NCBI RefSeq assembly: GCF_003334315.1 | Contig: NZ_QOWR01000016.1 | Direction: 5' to 3' (one strand) | DNA: 64,000 nucleotides | Source of the DNA: Escherichia coli | GTDB taxonomy: Bacteria; Pseudomonadota; Gammaproteobacteria; Enterobacterales; Enterobacteriaceae | In this document: in pieces, positions 7,939 to 30,451 of the stretch | Numbering within the stretch: the first letter of the stretch is position 1 | Layout: every line of letters starts with the position of its first letter | The notes under the pieces: generated by a model | What the model was told of the DNA's origin: nothing | What the model saw: the letters and a program-made list of their open reading frames with translations, nothing else | Databases searched by the model: none | Made by a program: the position numbers and the translations under genes

Positions 7939-9538
<1,600 letters not shown>

Positions 9539-21069: not shown

Positions 21070-23004
21070 ATGGCGAAAAACCTAATACTCTGGCTGGTCA
21101 TTGCCGTTGTGCTGATGTCAGTATTCCAGAGCTTTGGGCCCAGCGAGTCTAATGGCCGTAAGGTGGATTACTCTACCTTCCTACAAGAGGTCAATAACGA
21201 CCAGGTTCGTGAAGCGCGTATCAACGGACGTGAAATCAACGTTACCAAGAAAGATAGTAACCGTTATACCACTTACATTCCGGTTCAGGATCCGAAATTA
21301 CTGGATAACCTGTTGACCAAGAACGTCAAGGTTGTCGGTGAACCGCCTGAAGAACCAAGCCTGCTGGCTTCTATCTTCATCTCCTGGTTCCCGATGCTGT
21401 TGCTGATTGGTGTCTGGATCTTCTTCATGCGTCAAATGCAGGGCGGCGGTGGCAAAGGTGCCATGTCGTTTGGTAAGAGCAAAGCGCGCATGTTGACGGA
21501 AGATCAGATCAAAACGACCTTTGCTGACGTTGCGGGCTGCGACGAAGCAAAAGAAGAAGTTGCTGAACTGGTTGAGTATCTGCGCGAGCCGAGCCGCTTC
21601 CAGAAACTCGGCGGTAAGATCCCGAAAGGCGTCCTGATGGTCGGTCCTCCGGGTACCGGTAAAACGCTGCTGGCGAAAGCGATTGCAGGCGAAGCGAAAG
21701 TTCCGTTCTTTACTATCTCCGGTTCTGACTTCGTAGAAATGTTCGTCGGTGTGGGTGCATCCCGTGTTCGTGACATGTTCGAACAGGCGAAGAAAGCGGC
21801 ACCGTGCATCATCTTTATCGATGAAATCGACGCCGTAGGCCGCCAGCGTGGCGCTGGTCTGGGCGGTGGTCACGATGAACGTGAACAGACTCTGAACCAG
21901 ATGCTGGTTGAGATGGATGGCTTCGAAGGTAACGAAGGTATCATCGTTATCGCCGCGACTAACCGTCCGGACGTTCTCGACCCGGCCCTGCTGCGTCCTG
22001 GCCGTTTCGACCGTCAGGTTGTGGTTGGCTTGCCAGATGTTCGCGGTCGTGAGCAGATCCTGAAAGTTCACATGCGTCGCGTACCATTGGCACCCGATAT
22101 CGACGCGGCAATCATTGCCCGTGGTACTCCTGGTTTCTCCGGTGCTGACCTGGCGAACCTGGTGAACGAAGCGGCACTGTTCGCTGCTCGTGGCAACAAA
22201 CGCGTTGTGTCGATGGTTGAGTTCGAGAAAGCGAAAGACAAAATCATGATGGGTGCGGAACGTCGCTCCATGGTGATGACGGAAGCGCAGAAAGAATCAA
22301 CGGCTTACCACGAAGCGGGTCATGCGATTATCGGTCGCCTGGTGCCGGAACACGATCCGGTGCACAAAGTGACGATTATCCCACGCGGTCGTGCGCTGGG
22401 TGTGACTTTCTTCTTGCCTGAGGGCGACGCAATCAGCGCCAGCCGTCAGAAACTGGAAAGCCAGATTTCTACGCTGTACGGTGGTCGTCTGGCAGAAGAG
22501 ATCATCTACGGGCCGGAACATGTTTCTACCGGTGCGTCCAACGATATTAAAGTTGCGACCAACCTGGCACGTAACATGGTGACTCAGTGGGGCTTCTCTG
22601 AGAAATTGGGTCCACTGCTGTACGCGGAAGAAGAAGGTGAAGTGTTCCTCGGCCGTAGCGTAGCGAAAGCGAAACATATGTCCGATGAAACTGCACGTAT
22701 CATCGACCAGGAAGTGAAAGCACTGATTGAGCGTAACTATAATCGTGCGCGTCAGCTTCTGACCGACAATATGGATATTCTGCATGCGATGAAAGATGCT
22801 CTCATGAAATATGAGACTATCGACGCACCGCAGATTGATGACCTGATGGCACGTCGCGATGTACGTCCGCCAGCGGGCTGGGAAGAACCAGGCGCTTCTA
22901 ACAATTCTGGCGACAATGGTAGTCCAAAGGCTCCTCGTCCGGTTGATGAACCGCGTACGCCGAACCCGGGTAACACCATGTCAGAGCAGTTAGGCGACAA
23001 GTAA
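21070..23004 (+). CDS. ftsH: ATP-dependent zinc metalloprotease FtsH
   Basis: 644-aa product [18 protein letters not shown] Walker [14 protein letters not shown] zinc motif; track ORF starts 3 codons upstream at TTG. Confidence 0.96.
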
Positions 23005-23036
23005 GTTCCCGCATCAGATGACTGTATTTGTACCGA

Positions 23037-23067
23037 AAACCCCGGGGCGTGCTCCGGGGTTTTTTCT
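23037..23067 (+). terminator. Intrinsic terminator after ftsH (upstream of folP)
   Basis: AAAACCCCGGGGCGTGCTCCGGGGTTTTTTC. Confidence 0.75.
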
Positions 23068-23093
23068 TATCAATTCATACCAGGGATAACATC

Positions 23094-23942
23094 ATGAAAC
23101 TCTTTGCCCAGGGTACTTCACTGGACCTTAGCCATCCTCACGTAATGGGGATCCTCAACGTCACGCCTGATTCCTTTTCGGATGGTGGCACGCATAACTC
23201 GCTGATAGATGCGGTGAAACATGCGAATCTGATGATCAACGCTGGCGCGACGATCATTGACGTTGGTGGCGAGTCCACGCGCCCAGGGGCGGCGGAAGTT
23301 AGCGTTGAAGAAGAGTTGCAACGTGTTATTCCTGTGGTTGAGGCAATTGCTCAACGCTTCGAAGTCTGGATCTCGGTAGATACATCCAAACCAGAAGTCA
23401 TCCGTGAGTCAGCGAAAGTTGGCGCTCACATTATTAATGATATCCGCTCCCTTTCCGAACCTGGCGCTCTGGAGGCGGCTGCAGAAACCGGTTTACCGGT
23501 TTGTCTGATGCATATGCAGGGAAATCCAAAAACCATGCAGGAAGCTCCGAAGTATGACGATGTCTTTGCAGAAGTGAATCGCTACTTTATTGAGCAAATA
23601 GCACGTTGCGAGCAGGCGGGTATCGCAAAAGAGAAATTGTTGCTCGACCCCGGATTCGGTTTCGGTAAAAATCTCTCCCATAACTATTCATTACTGGCGC
23701 GCCTGGCTGAATTTCACCATTTCAACCTGCCGCTGTTGGTAGGTATGTCACGAAAATCGATGATTGGGCAGCTGCTGAACGTGGGGCCGTCCGAGCGCCT
23801 GAGCGGTAGTCTGGCCTGTGCGGTCATTGCCGCAATGCAAGGCGCGCACATTATTCGTGTTCATGACGTCAAAGAAACCGTAGAAGCGATGCGGGTGGTG
23901 GAAGCCACTCTGTCTGCAAAGGAAAACAAACGCTATGAGTAA
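23094..23942 (+). CDS. folP: Dihydropteroate synthase
   Basis: Track ORF trimmed to [32 protein letters not shown] giving 282 aa; matches FolP. Confidence 0.95.
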
Positions 23943-25272
23943 TCGTAAATATTTCGGTACCGATGGGATTCGTGGTCGTGTAGGGGATGCGCCGATCACA
24001 CCTGATTTTGTGCTTAAGCTGGGTTGGGCCGCGGGTAAAGTGCTGGCGCGCCACGGCTCCCGTAAGATCATTATTGGTAAAGACACGCGTATTTCTGGCT
24101 ATATGCTGGAGTCAGCACTGGAAGCGGGTCTGGCGGCAGCGGGCCTTTCCGCACTCTTCACTGGCCCGATGCCAACACCGGCCGTGGCTTATCTGACGCG
24201 TACCTTCCGCGCAGAGGCCGGAATTGTGATATCTGCATCGCATAACCCGTTCTACGATAATGGCATTAAATTCTTCTCTATCGACGGCACCAAACTGCCG
24301 GATGCGGTAGAAGAGGCCATCGAAGCGGAAATGGAAAAGGAGATCAGCTGCGTTGATTCGGCAGAACTGGGTAAAGCCAGCCGTATCGTTGATGCCGCGG
24401 GTCGCTATATCGAGTTTTGCAAAGCCACGTTCCCGAACGAACTTAGCCTCAGTGAACTGAAGATTGTGGTGGATTGTGCAAACGGTGCGACTTATCACAT
24501 CGCGCCGAACGTGCTGCGCGAACTGGGGGCGAACGTTATCGCTATCGGTTGTGAGCCAAACGGTGTAAACATCAATGCCGAAGTGGGGGCTACCGACGTT
24601 CGCGCGCTCCAGGCTCGTGTGCTGGCTGAAAAAGCGGATCTCGGTATTGCCTTCGACGGCGATGGCGATCGCGTGATTATGGTTGACCATGAAGGCAATA
24701 AAGTCGATGGCGATCAGATCATGTATATCATCGCGCGTGAAGGTCTTCGTCAGGGCCAGCTGCGTGGTGGCGCTGTGGGTACATTGATGAGCAACATGGG
24801 GCTTGAACTGGCGCTGAAACAGTTAGGAATTCCATTTGCGCGCGCGAAAGTGGGTGACCGCTACGTACTGGAAAAAATGCAGGAGAAAGGCTGGCGTATC
24901 GGTGCAGAGAATTCCGGTCATGTGATCCTGCTGGATAAAACTACTACCGGTGACGGCATCGTTGCTGGCTTGCAGGTGCTGGCGGCTATGGCACGTAACC
25001 ATATGAGCCTGCACGACCTTTGCAGCGGCATGAAAATGTTCCCGCAGATTCTGGTTAACGTACGTTACACCGCAGGTAGCGGCGATCCACTTGAGCATGA
25101 GTCAGTTAAAGCCGTGACCGCAGAGGTTGAAGCTGCGCTGGGCAACCGTGGACGCGTGTTGCTGCGTAAATCCGGCACCGAACCGTTAATTCGCGTGATG
25201 GTGGAAGGCGAAGACGAAGCGCAGGTGACTGAATTTGCACACCGCATCGCCGATGCAGTAAAAGCCGTTTAA
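23935..25272 (+). CDS. glmM: Phosphoglucosamine mutase
   Basis: 445-aa [20 protein letters not shown] with active-site SASHNP; matches GlmM; overlaps folP 3' end. Confidence 0.97.
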
Positions 25273-25290
25273 AGCGTTAGATAACTGGCT

Positions 25291-25318
25291 AAAAAGGCGG
25301 CGATTGTCGCCTTTTTTC
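25291..25318 (+). terminator. Intrinsic terminator after glmM
   Basis: AAAAAGGCGGCGATTGTCGCCTTTTTTC. Confidence 0.7.
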
Positions 25319-25499
25319 TCAGCGAACACATCGGTTTTGCTGTTTTTTTCCGCAGTTGATACAATGCGATAAAATTGCCCTTGCGAAGGTCATTCGCTTT
25401 GGTTAGTATTCACACCCGCTTCAGTGGGAAAGATTAAAAACTCCCGCTTTATTGGTTGAAGCATTGGTACGCGGCAACTCCGCAAGGAACAGGTTGATT

Positions 25500-25832
25500 A
25501 TGTACGAAGCTCTTTTAGTAGTTTTCCTTATTGTGGCAATTGGCCTTGTTGGTCTGATCATGCTGCAGCAAGGTAAAGGCGCTGATATGGGAGCCTCCTT
25601 CGGAGCAGGCGCTTCCGCTACGCTGTTTGGTTCAAGTGGTTCTGGTAACTTCATGACCCGCATGACGGCGCTGCTGGCAACGTTATTCTTCATCATCAGT
25701 CTGGTGCTGGGTAACATCAATAGCAACAAAACCAATAAAGGTAGCGAATGGGAAAATCTGAGTGCACCGGTGAAAACCGAACAAACTCAACCAGCTGCTC
25801 CGGCTAAGCCGACCAGCGATATCCCGAACTAA
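25500..25832 (+). CDS. secG: Protein translocase subunit SecG
   Basis: Track ORF trimmed to MYEALLVVFLIVAIGLVGLIMLQQGKGADMG giving 110 aa; matches SecG. Confidence 0.95.
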   Translation: MYEALLVVFLIVAIGLVGLIMLQQGKGADMGASFGAGASATLFGSSGSGNFMTRMTALLATLFFIISLVLGNINSNKTNKGSEWENLSAPVKTEQTQPAAPAKPTSDIPN

Positions 25833-25846
25833 AAAGTAGTATCCGT

Positions 25847-25933
25847 GCCGAGGTGGTGGAATTGGTAGACACGCTACCTTGAGGTGGTAGTGCCCAATAG
25901 GGCTTACGGGTTCAAGTCCCGTCCTCGGTACCA
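25847..25933 (+). tRNA. leuU: tRNA-Leu
   Basis: GCCGAGGTGGTGGAATTGGTAGACACGCTACCTTGAGGTGGTAGTGCCCAATAGGGCTTACGGGTTCAAGTCCCGTCCTCGGTACCA: long-variable-arm class II tRNA with CCA end, immediately 3' of secG as for E. coli leuU. Confidence 0.9.
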
Positions 25934-25941
25934 AATTCCAG

Positions 25942-25975
25942 AAAAGAGACGCTGAAAAGCGTCTTTTTTCGTTTT
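25942..25975 (+). terminator. Intrinsic terminator after leuU tRNA
   Basis: AAAGAGACGCTGAAAAGCGTCTTTTTTCGTTTT. Confidence 0.75.
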
Positions 25976-26391
25976 GGTCCTGGTCTGAGGAATGGTTGTC
26001 AGGTATCTGTATCTCGTCCAGTTGCTTTACTCGTAGCTGGTACCTTGAAACGATGGTGCCGGTACGCCTTAGTTATAAACTTTTCCCTTCTGCTGACATA
26101 ATTGGCACTTTATTGTGTCAACTCCAGTTCCGGTACGAATACGGATATGTTTACTTCTCGATAAACCATCCTGCTCCTGTCAGTATAACTACTGATGGCT
26201 ACGTTCTGCGTAATGTTTAGAGACGCATTGATAATGTTATTTAATTACTGAGAACGCAATGGCCGCATCATTTAAAAAGAAAAAACTAACAGTGTTTCGG
26301 TCTGATATGGATCAGAGTTGAAAAACATGTCTGATATAAAATTAAACATTGTTGATAATTGTTTATATTGGTTGTGAACTTGGATTTCTGG

Positions 26392-28017
26392 ATGACAGTA
26401 TTCAACAAATTTGCTAGAACTTTTAAATCTCATTGGTTGTTGTATCTTTGTGTTATTGTTTTTGGTATTACGAACTTAGTCGCTTCTTCCGGAGCGCATA
26501 TGGTTCAGCGCTTGCTGTTCTTCGTTCTGACCATCCTGGTTGTAAAACGTATATCATCCCTTCCGCTTCGCCTGCTTGTTGCCGCACCATTTGTGTTACT
26601 GACTGCGGCAGACATGAGTATTAGCCTCTATTCATGGTGTACCTTTGGTACAACTTTCAATGATGGATTTGCGATTAGTGTGCTCCAGAGTGATCCGGAT
26701 GAAGTTGTCAAAATGCTGGGGATGTATATCCCTTATCTATGTGCCTTTGCTTTTTTATCCCTTCTTTTTTTGGCAGTAATAATAAAATATGATGTTTCCT
26801 TGCCGACAAAAAAAGTGACAGGAATATTATTGCTGATTGTCATTTCGGGCAGTTTATTTTCCGCTTGTCAATTTGCTTATAAAGATGCAAAAAATAAAAA
26901 AGCGTTCAGTCCATATATACTAGCGTCGCGATTTGCTACCTATACGCCGTTTTTCAATCTCAACTATTTTGCTTTAGCAGCGAAAGAGCATCAAAGATTA
27001 CTCTCAATTGCAAACACGGTGCCGTATTTTCAATTATCAGTCAGGGATACAGGTATTGATACCTACGTGTTGATTGTGGGGGAGTCTGTACGTGTCGACA
27101 ATATGTCTTTGTATGGATATACACGCTCTACGACACCGCAAGTTGAAGCACAAAGAAAACAGATCAAACTGTTTAATCAAGCAATAAGCGGCGCACCTTA
27201 CACTGCGCTGTCGGTTCCCCTTTCTTTAACTGCTGATTCTGTTTTGAGTCATGACATTCATAATTACCCCGACAACATTATTAATATGGCTAATCAAGCA
27301 GGATTTCAGACTTTCTGGCTAAGCTCGCAATCCGCTTTTCGGCAGAATGGTACAGCAGTTACCAGTATCGCCATGCGCGCCATGGAAACAGTTTATGTCA
27401 GAGGATTTGATGAATTGTTGTTGCCGCATTTATCGCAAGCATTACAGCAAAATACGCAGCAAAAGAAACTGATTGTTCTTCATTTAAATGGAAGCCATGA
27501 ACCGGCTTGTAGCGCCTATCCGCAATCCAGCGCCGTGTTTCAACCGCAGGACGATCAGGATGCCTGCTATGACAACTCCATTCATTACACAGATAGTTTG
27601 CTAGGTCAGGTTTTTGAATTATTAAAAGATCGCCGCGCCTCGGTCATGTATTTTGCCGACCACGGCCTGGAACGTGACCCTACGAAGAAGAACGTCTATT
27701 TTCATGGAGGCAGGGAGGCTAGCCAGCAGGCATATCATGTCCCGATGTTTATCTGGTATAGCCCCGTTCTTGGGGATGGCGTGGATCGCACAACGGAAAA
27801 CAACATCTTTTCGACAGCTTACAATAATTACCTTATTAATGCGTGGATGGGGGTAACAAAGCCGGAACAGCCGCAAACGCTTGAGGAAGTGATTGCACAC
27901 TATAAAGGAGACTCACGGGTTGTGGATGCAAACCATGATGTTTTCGATTATGTGATGCTCAGAAAGGAGTTTACAGAGGATAAGCAAGGTAACCCCACCC
28001 CTGAAGGGCAGGGTTGA
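26392..28017 (+). CDS. yhbX: Inner membrane sulfatase/phosphoethanolamine-transferase-family protein (OpgE/EptA-like)
   Basis: 541-aa product from ATG MTVFNKFARTFKSHWLL with N-terminal TM helices and C-terminal sulfatase-like domain; matches YhbX; track ORF begins 11 codons upstream at a non-ATG codon. Confidence 0.85.
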   Translation: MTVFNKFARTFKSHWLLYLCVIVFGITNLVASSGAHMVQRLLFFVLTILVVKRISSLPLRLLVAAPFVLLTAADMSISLYSWCTFGTTFNDGFAISVLQSDPDEVVKMLGMYIPYLCAFAFLSLLFLAVIIKYDVSLPTKKVTGILLLIVISGSLFSACQFAYKDAKNKKAFSPYILASRFATYTPFFNLNYFALAAKEHQRLLSIANTVPYFQLSVRDTGIDTYVLIVGESVRVDNMSLYGYTRSTTPQVEAQRKQIKLFNQAISGAPYTALSVPLSLTADSVLSHDIHNYPDNIINMANQAGFQTFWLSSQSAFRQNGTAVTSIAMRAMETVYVRGFDELLLPHLSQALQQNTQQKKLIVLHLNGSHEPACSAYPQSSAVFQPQDDQDACYDNSIHYTDSLLGQVFELLKDRRASVMYFADHGLERDPTKKNVYFHGGREASQQAYHVPMFIWYSPVLGDGVDRTTENNIFSTAYNNYLINAWMGVTKPEQPQTLEEVIAHYKGDSRVVDANHDVFDYVMLRKEFTEDKQGNPTPEGQG

Positions 28018-28024
28018 TGTCGAA

Positions 28025-29383
<1,359 letters not shown>

Positions 29384-29419
29384 TTAATTAACTGATGATG
29401 AGCCTGGATTTCCGCTCTC

Positions 29420-29455
29420 ACTGAATTTTTATGCAAAATAAATGAGTTTTCATTT
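29420..29455 (-). promoter_or_regulatory. Tandem ARG boxes (ArgR operator) in argG promoter
   Basis: On the argG strand the region reads AAATGAAAACTCATTTAT TTTGCATAAAAATTCAGT, two adjacent 18-bp sites resembling TNTGAATWWWWATTCANT, 50-90 bp upstream of the argG start. Confidence 0.55.
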
Positions 29456-29593
29456 AATCATCTTTTATCGGAGACAGGAAGAGTTTAGTGTGTTTTTTGT
29501 AAAATAATGCGCTTAAGGGAGAGCAGGAGAAGGCAAAAGTATTCAACAAATGAAAGTGAACTGGATATTCATTCACATGATTAGCAATAAACG

Positions 29594-29623
29594 TTGACAA
29601 AATGTGGCGTGGATCACTATAAT
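29594..29623 (+). promoter_or_regulatory. Near-consensus sigma-70 promoter upstream of metY (distal)
   Basis: TTGACA -18 nt- TATAAT read directly from sequence about 95 bp upstream of the tRNA. Confidence 0.5.
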
Positions 29624-29671
29624 GCCTGCAGATTTTACGTCCCGTCTCGGTACACCAAATCCCAGCAGTAT

Positions 29672-29700
29672 TTGCATTTTTTACCCAAAACGAGTAGAAT
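29672..29700 (+). promoter_or_regulatory. sigma-70 promoter of metY (proximal)
   Basis: TTGCAT -17 nt- TAGAAT ending about 15 nt upstream of the mature tRNA 5' end. Confidence 0.6.
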
Positions 29701-29715
29701 TTGCCACGTTTCAGG

Positions 29716-29792
<77 letters not shown>

Positions 29793-29913
29793 CTTTCCCT
29801 TAGAGTCCTTTTTCAAATATACTGTGAAGACTTCGGCCTTCGTAGTGGGATTTGAAAAAATCCTTCTGGAAAGTGCTCCAGACCGCAGTTGCGGTTATAG
29901 GGTTCAGTTATAT

Positions 29914-29940
29914 AAAGCCCCGATTTATCGGGGTTTTTTG
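29914..29940 (+). terminator. Intrinsic terminator/attenuator between metY and rimP
   Basis: AAAGCCCCGATTTATCGGGGTTTTTTG hairpin plus T-tract. Confidence 0.7.
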
Positions 29941-29998
29941 TTATCTGACTACAGAATAACTGGGCTTTAGGCCCTTTTTTTATGTCTTGGGGGTGGGC

Positions 29999-30451
29999 TT
30001 GTCCACATTAGAGCAAAAATTAACAGAGATGATTACTGCGCCAGTTGAGGCCCTGGGTTTTGAACTGGTTGGCATCGAATTTATTCGCGGTCGCACATCC
30101 ACACTGCGCATCTATATTGATAGTGAAGATGGCATCAATGTTGATGATTGTGCTGATGTGAGCCACCAGGTAAGTGCTGTGCTGGATGTTGAAGATCCCA
30201 TCACCGTTGCTTATAACCTGGAAGTCTCCTCACCGGGTCTCGATCGCCCACTGTTCACGGCTGAACACTACGCCCGTTTTGTCGGAGAAGAGGTGACTCT
30301 GGTTCTCCGTATGGCGGTACAAAACCGTCGTAAATGGCAGGGCGTTATCAAAGCGGTAGACGGTGAAATGATCACAGTTACCGTCGAAGGTAAAGATGAA
30401 GTGTTCGCGCTGAGTAATATCCAGAAGGCGAACCTGGTTCCCCACTTTTAA
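29999..30451 (+). CDS. rimP: Ribosome maturation factor RimP
   Basis: 150-aa product (M)[24 protein letters not shown] from a TTG start; matches RimP (YhbC). Confidence 0.9.

Follow-up and report, generated by a model that had tools for sequence, protein, structure and literature searches.

How did yhbX come to lie between the tRNA gene leuU and argG in Escherichia coli? In the 64-kb window analysed here, the initial annotation read positions 25934–28024 as an AT-rich islet carrying an old horizontally acquired gene, with long A/T runs, about 420 bp of upstream sequence, a tRNA gene at one boundary and a gene end 7 bp from the convergent argG stop. Our analysis indicates that ~25976–28033 is very probably a small, old, horizontally acquired one-gene islet, composed of yhbX and its AT-rich upstream region, in a re-used slot. 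yhbX itself is an already known gene of a known family, and the variation in the slot is ordinary genome variation.

Layout and composition of the leuU–argG slot

The slot and its anchors contain the following features:

25847–25933, plus strand: leuU, tRNA-Leu(GAG) (ARAGORN; Rfam tRNA, 52.8 bits), the left anchor of the slot
25941–25970, plus strand: leuU/secG intrinsic terminator hairpin and T-run (terminator scan)
25976–26391, plus strand: AT-rich non-coding spacer, ~38–39% GC, presumed yhbX promoter region
26392–28017, plus strand: yhbX coding sequence, 541 aa (RefSeq annotation, ATG at 26392)
26428–26880, plus strand: N-terminal hydrophobic membrane anchor of YhbX, residues ~13–163 (Kyte–Doolittle; several predicted transmembrane segments)
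27061–27792, plus strand: sulfatase/alkaline-phosphatase-fold catalytic domain of YhbX, residues 224–467 (Pfam PF00884, E = 3e-56)
28018–28033, no strand: right junction, consisting of a 7-nt spacer, the argG stop and the last two argG codons (alignment)
28025–29368, minus strand: argG, argininosuccinate synthase (ORF list and annotation), the right anchor, convergent with yhbX

Both anchors are conserved, with leuU 100% identical in Salmonella and 90–98% identical in other genera, and ArgG 94–97% identical at the amino-acid level across Enterobacteriaceae. The layout matches the initial annotation: leuU forms one boundary, the upstream region measures 421 bp between the terminator and the yhbX ATG (458 bp when counted from the end of leuU), and the yhbX and argG stop codons are separated by 7 nt (28018–28024). 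The mechanical ORF of yhbX begins at TTG 26359, and the RefSeq start is the ATG at 26392. The variable segment has sharp breakpoints, one at ~25976 just past the leuU terminator and the other at ~28033 within the final two argG codons, so that it extends ~9 nt into that gene. The hairpin at 25941–25970 is also found in genera with an empty site and is the last sequence that every allele and genus shares before the variation begins.

The promoter and terminator scans perform no better than on shuffled sequence; with that reservation, they place a weak sigma-70-like site at 26331–26359 and no minus-strand terminator-like site downstream of argG in this window. An RNA polymerase–sigma SELEX site has been placed in the leuU–yhbX spacer (PMC5493296), and an Rfam scan of 25300–30000 gave no family in the spacer or in yhbX. 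On the other side, argG–yhbX is one of the overlapping convergent pairs detected by RNA-seq (PMC12288877).

The stretch at 25934–28024 has a GC content of 42.1%, compared with 51.3% across the whole window, which alone served as the background for all composition statistics. By part, GC is 38.6% in the upstream spacer and 43.1% in yhbX, versus 49.2% in secG, 52.6% in argG and 54.4% in glmM. Only 0.9% of 2091-bp tiles of the window are equally AT-rich, and the stretch has the second-lowest GC, above that of 58911–61001. It contains seven homopolymeric A/T runs of at least 6 nt (mean 2.0 per tile; 2.9% of tiles reach seven).

Codon usage deviates in the same gene. Relative to 40 annotated neighbouring genes, yhbX has z-scores of −4.0 for GC, −2.3 for GC1 and −2.4 for GC3 (0.421), and both its GC3 and its local codon adaptation index (0.345) are the lowest of the 41 genes. 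Its codon-usage chi-square per codon is 0.74, versus ~0.06–0.27 in other genes longer than 1 kb. GC2 is normal (z = −0.6), and the low GC is therefore not explained by amino-acid composition or membrane character; GC3 is 0.56–0.65 in the other membrane-protein genes of the window (mlaE, mtr, yhbE and yrbG).

Occupancy of the slot within and beyond E. coli

We compared 16 Enterobacteriaceae loci, taken as non-Escherichia, with conserved rimP–metY–argG…leuU–secG synteny, and none carries yhbX in the leuU–argG slot. The sample comprises Citrobacter (3), Enterobacter (3), Pluralibacter, Phytobacter, Kluyvera, Superficieibacter, Pseudocitrobacter, ‘Escherichia sp. ESNIH1’, one MAG, Salmonella enterica, Klebsiella pneumoniae and K. 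aerogenes; E. albertii, E. fergusonii, E. marmotae and the cryptic clades lie outside it. The Salmonella and Klebsiella loci come from chromosome-sized PLSDB records mislabelled as plasmids, an ArgG-anchored contig scan having given none. Because yhbX is missing from all 16 loci, it is not a gene held at this position by all related genera. A 2014 paper that lists the phosphoethanolamine (PEtN) transferases of S. enterica LT2 and of C. rodentium likewise has no YhbX entry (PMC4013655).

At 10 of the 16 loci the slot is about 114–565 bp long and contains the leuU terminator, REP-like repeats and the argG terminator. Other loci hold unrelated cargo: 2.8 kb in Pluralibacter, 1.7 kb in Kluyvera, 3.6 kb in ESNIH1, a YwqG-family gene in Salmonella, and either an HTH gene with an IS element or YfaZ in Klebsiella. 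The cargo measures ~1–3.6 kb in every genus.

Within E. coli, yhbX is present in 5179 of 5426 complete genomes (~95%), and the spacer at 25976–26391 travels with it, both being covered in 5167 genomes. A different AT-rich cassette (37% GC), encoding an HTH-domain protein of 317 aa, occupies the slot in 237 of the 5426 (~4%); it matches the yhbX allele up to ~25975. One genome has a 273-bp slot holding a remnant of the HTH gene, and ~9 further complete genomes contain neither cassette. PADLOC returned no match for YhbX, and weak HTH matches alone for the alternative gene.

The right junction distinguishes these alleles. The comparison covered the C-terminal end of ArgG and the hairpins beyond it in 10 genera, in the HTH allele and in strain E7-1N7. 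ArgG ends in …KGQ* in the yhbX allele and in …KVK* in the HTH allele, with 4 of 6 nt differing. The …KVK* end, which is that of Citrobacter sp. R56, is also kept in the E7-1N7 remnant. The terminator hairpin of argG is retained in the HTH allele, in E7-1N7 and in other genera but is gone from the yhbX allele.

YhbX and its relatives

YhbX is a membrane-anchored protein of the sulfatase/phosphoethanolamine-transferase family, as the initial annotation proposed and as Pfam, NCBIfam and structural alignment all indicate. Its PDB matches are the catalytic domains of EptA, EptC and MCR-1/2 (E = 1e-11 to 1e-24). It aligns over nearly its full length with Neisseria meningitidis EptA (PDB 5FGN; residues 41–459), with the alignment of the transmembrane region starting at residue 41. 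Residues E231, T271, H369, D423, H424, H438 and H449 correspond to E240, T280, H383, D452, H453, H465 and H478 of NmEptA, so the catalytic threonine nucleophile and all Zn-site residues of PEtN transferases are intact. EptA/PmrC and MCR share the YhbX architecture of an N-terminal membrane domain followed by a sulfatase-fold domain, which in YhbX is presumably periplasmic by homology with EptA. As an inner-membrane enzyme, YhbX would be predicted by homology to transfer phosphoethanolamine from phosphatidylethanolamine to an acceptor in the envelope.

The initial annotation also called for placement in the EptA, EptB or OpgE subfamily by HMM search, and here the protein fits none. For the lipid A transferase EptA, YhbX reaches 94.5 of the 660 bits required by NF008619 and 122 of the 561 required by NF007160. 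The scores are 105 (cut-off 493) for the Kdo transferase EptB (NF008593), 142 (cut-off 404, NF007933) and 124 (cut-off 900, NF012179) for CptA/EptC, and 32–71 (cut-offs 1075–1250) for the models of the MCR mobile colistin-resistance transferases. The CptA subfamily model is its second-best NCBIfam match, and no OpgE model is among its NCBIfam matches. An annotated opgE product (OpgE, or YbiP, adds PEtN to osmoregulated periplasmic glucans) is 28.6% identical over 60% of YhbX, and the product of Providencia cptA, a heptose-I phosphate PEtN transferase, is 25.4% identical. The sub-cut-off CptA score and the low identity to both proteins mark YhbX as a separate subfamily. Judged by sequence, then, YhbX is classed within the phosphoethanolamine transferase family (the ‘YhbX/YhjW/YijP/YjdB family’), apart from EptA, EptB, CptA/EptC and OpgE. 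Pfam EptA_B_N was not detected in YhbX, and we found no support for lipid A as its acceptor. A published comparison names YhbX, YbiP and CptA as the closest E. coli matches of Proteus PMI3040 and states that YhbX has no established function (PMC4013655). Literature searches turned up no open-access paper whose title or abstract names yhbX and nothing relevant under b3173; they retrieved no evidence on H-NS binding at yhbX, and any silencing of the gene by H-NS would be putative.

Homologues are sparse. The distribution was taken from a search of 50% representatives, since the direct homologue search returned near-identical E. coli entries alone. Among 1.84 billion cluster representatives, 121 match YhbX at E ≤ 1e-30. 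Outside E. coli, the closest clusters reach 41–48% identity and come from Buttiauxella, Mixta, Pectobacterium and Microvirgula, where the genes lie in different genomic contexts, one of them inside a restriction/defence island; the Buttiauxella noackiae copy is likewise AT-rich relative to its host. The cluster-representative search found no donor of yhbX and no relative more than 50% identical outside E. coli. A paralogue 64.5% identical to YhbX is carried by plasmid pRHB40-C01_2 and by a chromosomal island that bears integrase and IS remnants, and it is full-length in 455 of the 5426 E. coli genomes (~8%).

Several apparent divergent orthologues of yhbX were rejected. Clusters P0157 and P0151 (74–88% identity) are fragment clusters that represent assembly artefacts. 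Locus L097 aligns without a gap over 8354 nt at 83.6% identity and probably reflects converted or erroneous reads, and L098 is an assembly full of frameshifts (98% identity).

Origin and consequences of the islet

Within E. coli, yhbX has a dN/dS of 0.05–0.17 and is maintained by purifying selection. Its within-species dS reaches 0.051, compared with 0.060 for argG, and together these values indicate that yhbX is an old, maintained gene. The deviant GC and codon usage, the absence from all syntenic loci and this depth of divergence bear out the initial annotation's reading of an old horizontally acquired gene. The gene is absent from the syntenic site in related taxa (the closest Escherichia species being outside the sample), and its homologues are sporadic.

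An ancestral enterobacterial gene, AT-rich as a weakly expressed membrane protein and lost independently elsewhere, would agree with that dS, as deep as in core genes, with the near universality of yhbX in E. coli and with the lack of mobility genes, IS elements or att-like repeats flanking the islet (annotation and repeat search). Yet none of the 16 syntenic loci in other genera carries yhbX, and 10 of these keep intact short spacers with both terminators. The low GC1 and GC3 with normal GC2, set against the ordinary GC3 of other membrane-protein genes in the window, speak against it, as do the low identity (<50%) and non-syntenic positions of the nearest homologues and the existence of a paralogue carried by a plasmid and by an island. 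Moreover, it is the yhbX form that lacks the ancestral argG end and terminator common to other genera and the HTH allele. We regard ancestry at this site as barely credible and as largely refuted by the present data.

The initial annotation took the tRNA boundary as part of the signature of acquisition. Adjacency to leuU stands, but it does not count as a sign of integrase-mediated insertion. A classical genomic island that a site-specific integrase had inserted into the tRNA gene leuU, intact or since decayed, would fit the position directly downstream of a tRNA gene, the foreign composition and the different cargo of different lineages. Yet the E. coli slot contains no annotated or recognizable integrase gene or fragment, and a repeat search found no direct repeat of the leuU 3′ end at the distal boundary. 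Without either, the yhbX islet is not a classical tRNA-integrated island. The left junction lies past the terminator, ~42 nt beyond the tRNA rather than within it, the right junction lies inside argG, and the small size of the cargo in every genus is a further argument against such an island, which we consider very unlikely.

The reading we prefer is acquisition into a re-used slot. The space between the convergent units secG–leuU and argG appears to be permissive and repeatedly re-used in Enterobacteriaceae, holding just the two terminators and REP-like repeats in most sampled genera and unrelated cargo in others. Arrival of the yhbX cassette would have overwritten the last two codons of argG and deleted its terminator, so that yhbX and argG now end 7 nt apart with no terminator between them. 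Within the species, homologous recombination across the conserved flanks probably swaps the yhbX and HTH cassettes. As in other hypervariable-slot islets of E. coli, conserved core flanks, sharp breakpoints and alternative, unrelated AT-rich cargo are seen here. Unlike those islets, the yhbX islet comprises one gene, is nearly fixed in the species, has no integrase or att sites, and has removed its neighbour's terminator and last two codons.

The order of events within Escherichia is less clear. The ancestral-type argG C-terminus and terminator hairpin, retained in the HTH allele and E7-1N7 and lost with yhbX, would fit the HTH cassette being the older state that yhbX replaced, as opposed to independent insertions or the reverse order. 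However, yhbX is the majority allele with a core-like dS, the HTH cassette could have come with ancestral-type flanks by homologous recombination from another lineage, and the proposed order rests on a sample without outgroup Escherichia species. We regard HTH-first as a possible but somewhat doubtful order.

Acquisition would mean that a gene present in most E. coli and counted as ‘core’ is foreign cargo, and that the species still segregates an alternative cassette. Markers and synthetic operons are inserted at the leuU–yhbX and argG–yhbX junctions, which are used as neutral landing pads (10.1101/2023.02.03.527047, PMC12421378), and for users of these sites it is relevant that in K-12-type strains argG lacks its own terminator. 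A bolder reading, spanning E. coli yhbX, its accessory paralogue and the Buttiauxella, Mixta and Pectobacterium copies, is that YhbX-type proteins form a distinct mobile, AT-rich PEtN-transferase subfamily with an acceptor unlike those of EptA, EptB, EptC and OpgE, and hence an undescribed surface modification, and that, with the argG terminator gone from the yhbX allele, convergent read-through could tie yhbX expression to that of argG; we think this unlikely, but if true the modification may affect polymyxin, phage or immune recognition. YhbX is among the few E. coli K-12 phosphoethanolamine-transferase paralogues still lacking an assigned acceptor, and the plasmid- and island-borne paralogue offers a second handle for functional work on it.

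Layout and composition of the yhbX islet

K-12-type E. coli chromosomes match the window at 99.8–100% identity, with the local order glmM, secG, leuU, yhbX, argG (convergent), metY, rimP, nusA (RefSeq annotation, MG1655p). The features that frame the islet are:

25847–25933, leuU (tRNA-Leu)
25941–25970, leuU terminator
26392–28017, + strand, yhbX
28025–29368, − strand, argG

The initial annotation placed 7 nt between the yhbX and argG stop codons and ~420 bp from the terminator to the start of yhbX, and both figures are correct. For the leuU–yhbX spacer (25976–26391), a genomic SELEX study covering minor sigma factors lists an RNA polymerase holoenzyme binding site in its heat-shock sigma table (PMC5493296); the spacer also serves as a neutral site for marker insertion (10.1101/2023.02.03.527047). 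A rimP leader lies downstream of metY at 29881–29981 (Rfam RF01770, 102 bits), as expected for the metY-rimP-nusA-infB operon.

The contrast in AT content with the flanking genes that had been noticed by inspection is borne out by measurement. The islet has a GC content of 42.1%, compared with 51.3% across the window; just 0.9% of tiles of equal length are as GC-poor, and A/T runs are enriched. The spacer (38.6% GC) and the yhbX coding sequence (43.1%) lie below secG (49.2%), argG (52.6%) and glmM (54.4%). Of the 41 annotated genes, yhbX ranks last in GC (z = −4.0), in GC3 (0.421; z = −2.4) and in local codon-adaptation index, with a codon-usage chi-square per codon several times that of other genes of similar length. 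GC2 is unremarkable (z = −0.6) and GC3 runs at 0.56–0.65 for the window's other membrane proteins, so the bias is mutational or codon-level rather than a by-product of hydrophobic residues. Within the window, only 58911–61001 (40.7% GC over 2091 bp) exceeds the islet in AT content; it overlaps several − strand ORFs around 59220–61735 and may be another foreign segment.

The leuU–argG slot

Syntenic loci (rimP-metY-argG...leuU-secG-glmM) of other Enterobacteriaceae were gathered with ArgG as anchor; chromosome-sized entries of the plasmid collection supplied further loci from Salmonella enterica, Klebsiella pneumoniae and K. aerogenes. YhbX was found by tblastn in none of the 16 loci with both anchors present. 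The leuU–argG gap spans only 114–565 bp in 10 of these. It is made up of the leuU terminator, palindromic REP-like repeats and, immediately past argG, a G+C-rich hairpin with a trailing T-run that is argG's own terminator. The remaining six hold cargo unrelated to yhbX.

Slot contents in the six cargo-bearing loci
Pluralibacter: 2.8 kb, outer-membrane-protein-like ORFs among contents
Kluyvera: AraC-type regulator and a second, unclassified ORF
'Escherichia sp. ESNIH1': 3.6 kb, four unclassified ORFs on both strands
Salmonella: YwqG-family gene
K. pneumoniae: HTH gene and IS3-family element
K. aerogenes: HTH gene and YfaZ-like gene

These contents make the slot hypervariable, with yhbX confined to E. 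coli among the sampled loci. An ancestral gene would combine normal composition with presence in all related genera, and yhbX shows neither; its deviant composition and absence from the 16 syntenic loci of other Enterobacteriaceae support the horizontal acquisition proposed in the initial annotation. A second variable slot neighbors this one: secG and glmM, ~230 bp apart in E. coli, are separated by ~3.9 kb of extra DNA in Citrobacter youngae (locus L004, 9961–13836) and C. werkmanii (L005, 9968–13841). In Pluralibacter gergoviae (L006), rimP-metY-argG is conserved, yet the 8 kb of sequence following argG (downstream, at 9332) yielded no leuU, secG or glmM, indicating either a large insertion or a rearrangement at the slot.

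Within E. coli, yhbX and its spacer are present in 5179 of 5426 complete genomes. Another 237 (~4%) carry an alternative cassette of ~1.16 kb and 37% GC, located in E. coli FDAARGOS_944 at L002 4577–5740, in the same slot as 25976–28033 of the window. Its 317-aa gene (WP_038339034.1) lies on the opposite strand; the first 40–60 residues alone match helix-turn-helix families (XRE/HTH_19-like), leaving ~250 further residues without assignment, and relatives of 45–51% identity are plasmid-borne in a Serratia and a Rhizobium. The two forms have the same sequence up to and including the leuU terminator, diverge from ~25976 and re-converge inside argG, where 4 of the 6 nt in the final two codons differ (ArgG …NKGQ* in K-12, …NKVK* in the HTH form). 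The hairpin terminating argG survives in the HTH form, as does an ending of the …KVK* or …KAK* type found in Citrobacter and others; the yhbX form has neither. The yhbX cassette thus replaced ~9 nt of argG and deleted its terminator. A terminator scan found no terminator-like site between or just past the two stop codons, and the loss fits the appearance of argG–yhbX in an RNA-seq-based listing of overlapping convergent pairs (PMC12288877).

An artificial 'empty junction' query retrieved a single complete genome, E7-1N7, with a 273-bp leuU–argG spacer (L099 1735–2007). This is not a pristine empty site: alongside an ancestral-type argG end and terminator it contains a 78-nt HTH gene remnant (78% identity), marking a decayed cassette.

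The initial annotation had described the islet as tRNA-bounded. It does adjoin leuU, and the classical island signature is absent: the islet has no integrase, the 3' end of the tRNA is not repeated directly according to a repeat search, and the left junction lies beyond the leuU terminator. leuU is a neighbor rather than a demonstrated attachment site. What the genera share is a space flanked by two convergent terminators, which takes up insertions without harm.

The YhbX protein and its mobile relatives

YhbX is of the membrane-anchored sulfatase/phosphoethanolamine-transferase type, as originally proposed, with hydrophobic segments at residues ~13–163 and a Pfam Sulfatase domain at 224–467. 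In phmmer searches of the PDB, residues 41–459 align with full-length Neisseria meningitidis EptA (5FGN), while EptC and MCR-1/2 match the C-terminal domain. Every residue of the nucleophile and metal site is retained (E231, T271, H369, D423, H424, H438, H449). YhbX reaches none of the curated NCBIfam cut-offs, and an annotated opgE matches it at 28.6% identity across 60% of its length.

YhbX scores against NCBIfam models (cut-off in parentheses)
Generic phosphoethanolamine-transferase domain: 156 bits (500)
CptA: 142 bits (404)
EptA NF007160: 122 bits (561)
EptA NF008619: 94.5 bits (660)
EptB: 105 bits (493)
MCR family: ≤71 bits (≥1075)

YhbX thus genuinely belongs to the phosphoethanolamine-transferase family, within which it forms its own subfamily. 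By homology, a Thr271-phosphoethanolamine intermediate would form from phosphatidylethanolamine and the group would then pass to a periplasm-facing acceptor. YhbX has no established function (PMC4013655), and none of the open-access papers mentioning the gene names it in title or abstract.

Scanned with HMMER without a profile, 1.84 billion cluster representatives yielded only 121 clusters at E ≤ 1e-30. The closest full-length ones outside E. coli share 41–48% identity (Buttiauxella noackiae, B. gaviniae, B. massiliensis, Mixta gaviniae, a Pectobacterium and Microvirgula); a Providencia homologue has ~36%. The B. noackiae copy, AT-rich for its host (42.6% versus 50.6% GC), lies between elaA-elaB-menF-type genes and kdp, that of Mixta at another, unrelated locus, and that of B. 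massiliensis inside a type I restriction/TIR/HNH/WYL/AlpA island. A paralogue with 64.5% amino-acid identity to YhbX and 43.7% GC resides once on a plasmid, the 62-kb circular pRHB40-C01_2 (L100 438–2099), and, in E. coli YZMc3-1, in a chromosomal island with integrase and IS fragments (L101 7001–8674). It is full-length in 455 of the 5426 genomes, and ~1450 further E. coli genomes keep only a ~98-nt 3' remnant inside a 'hypothetical protein'. These scattered contexts and the plasmid and island paralogue make the subfamily demonstrably mobile.

Two kinds of match are misleading. Apparent 'plasmid' copies of core genes (argG, yhbX) are chromosome-sized or chromosomal-fragment records filed in PLSDB (NZ_OL790696.1, NZ_CP134663.1, CP125156.1, NZ_LN868944.1 and others). 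A Logan contig from SRR3359616 (L097) matches 21392–29745 at 83.6% over 8354 nt with zero gaps, a pattern that disfavors a divergent species and suggests chemically converted (e.g. bisulfite) or error-laden reads; such sequence yields spurious 'divergent YhbX' fragment clusters in protein collections.

Age and maintenance of yhbX

The gene, its family and the general phenomenon are all already known. The initial observation is confirmed and its interpretation supported, refined by exact breakpoints, by argG being deprived of its terminator and final two codons, and by the absence of evidence for an integrase or att site, and extended by the alternative cassette and the mobile paralogue. Strain L6-21 (H1/H13) is 100% identical to the window apart from an IS in yhbX; IS1 or the IS5-like ISKpn26 breaks the gene there and in CFS3292 (H14) and KMi006 (H42), so yhbX is dispensable. 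Compared between K-12 and further lineages of E. coli, yhbX has no stop codons and a dN/dS of 0.05–0.17, marking it as a functional gene under purifying selection. Its dS reaches 0.051, compared with up to 0.060 for argG; diversity as deep as in core neighbors is consistent with acquisition before the species radiation. The retained AT-richness suggests slow amelioration, and putative xenogeneic silencing of yhbX by H-NS is plausible.
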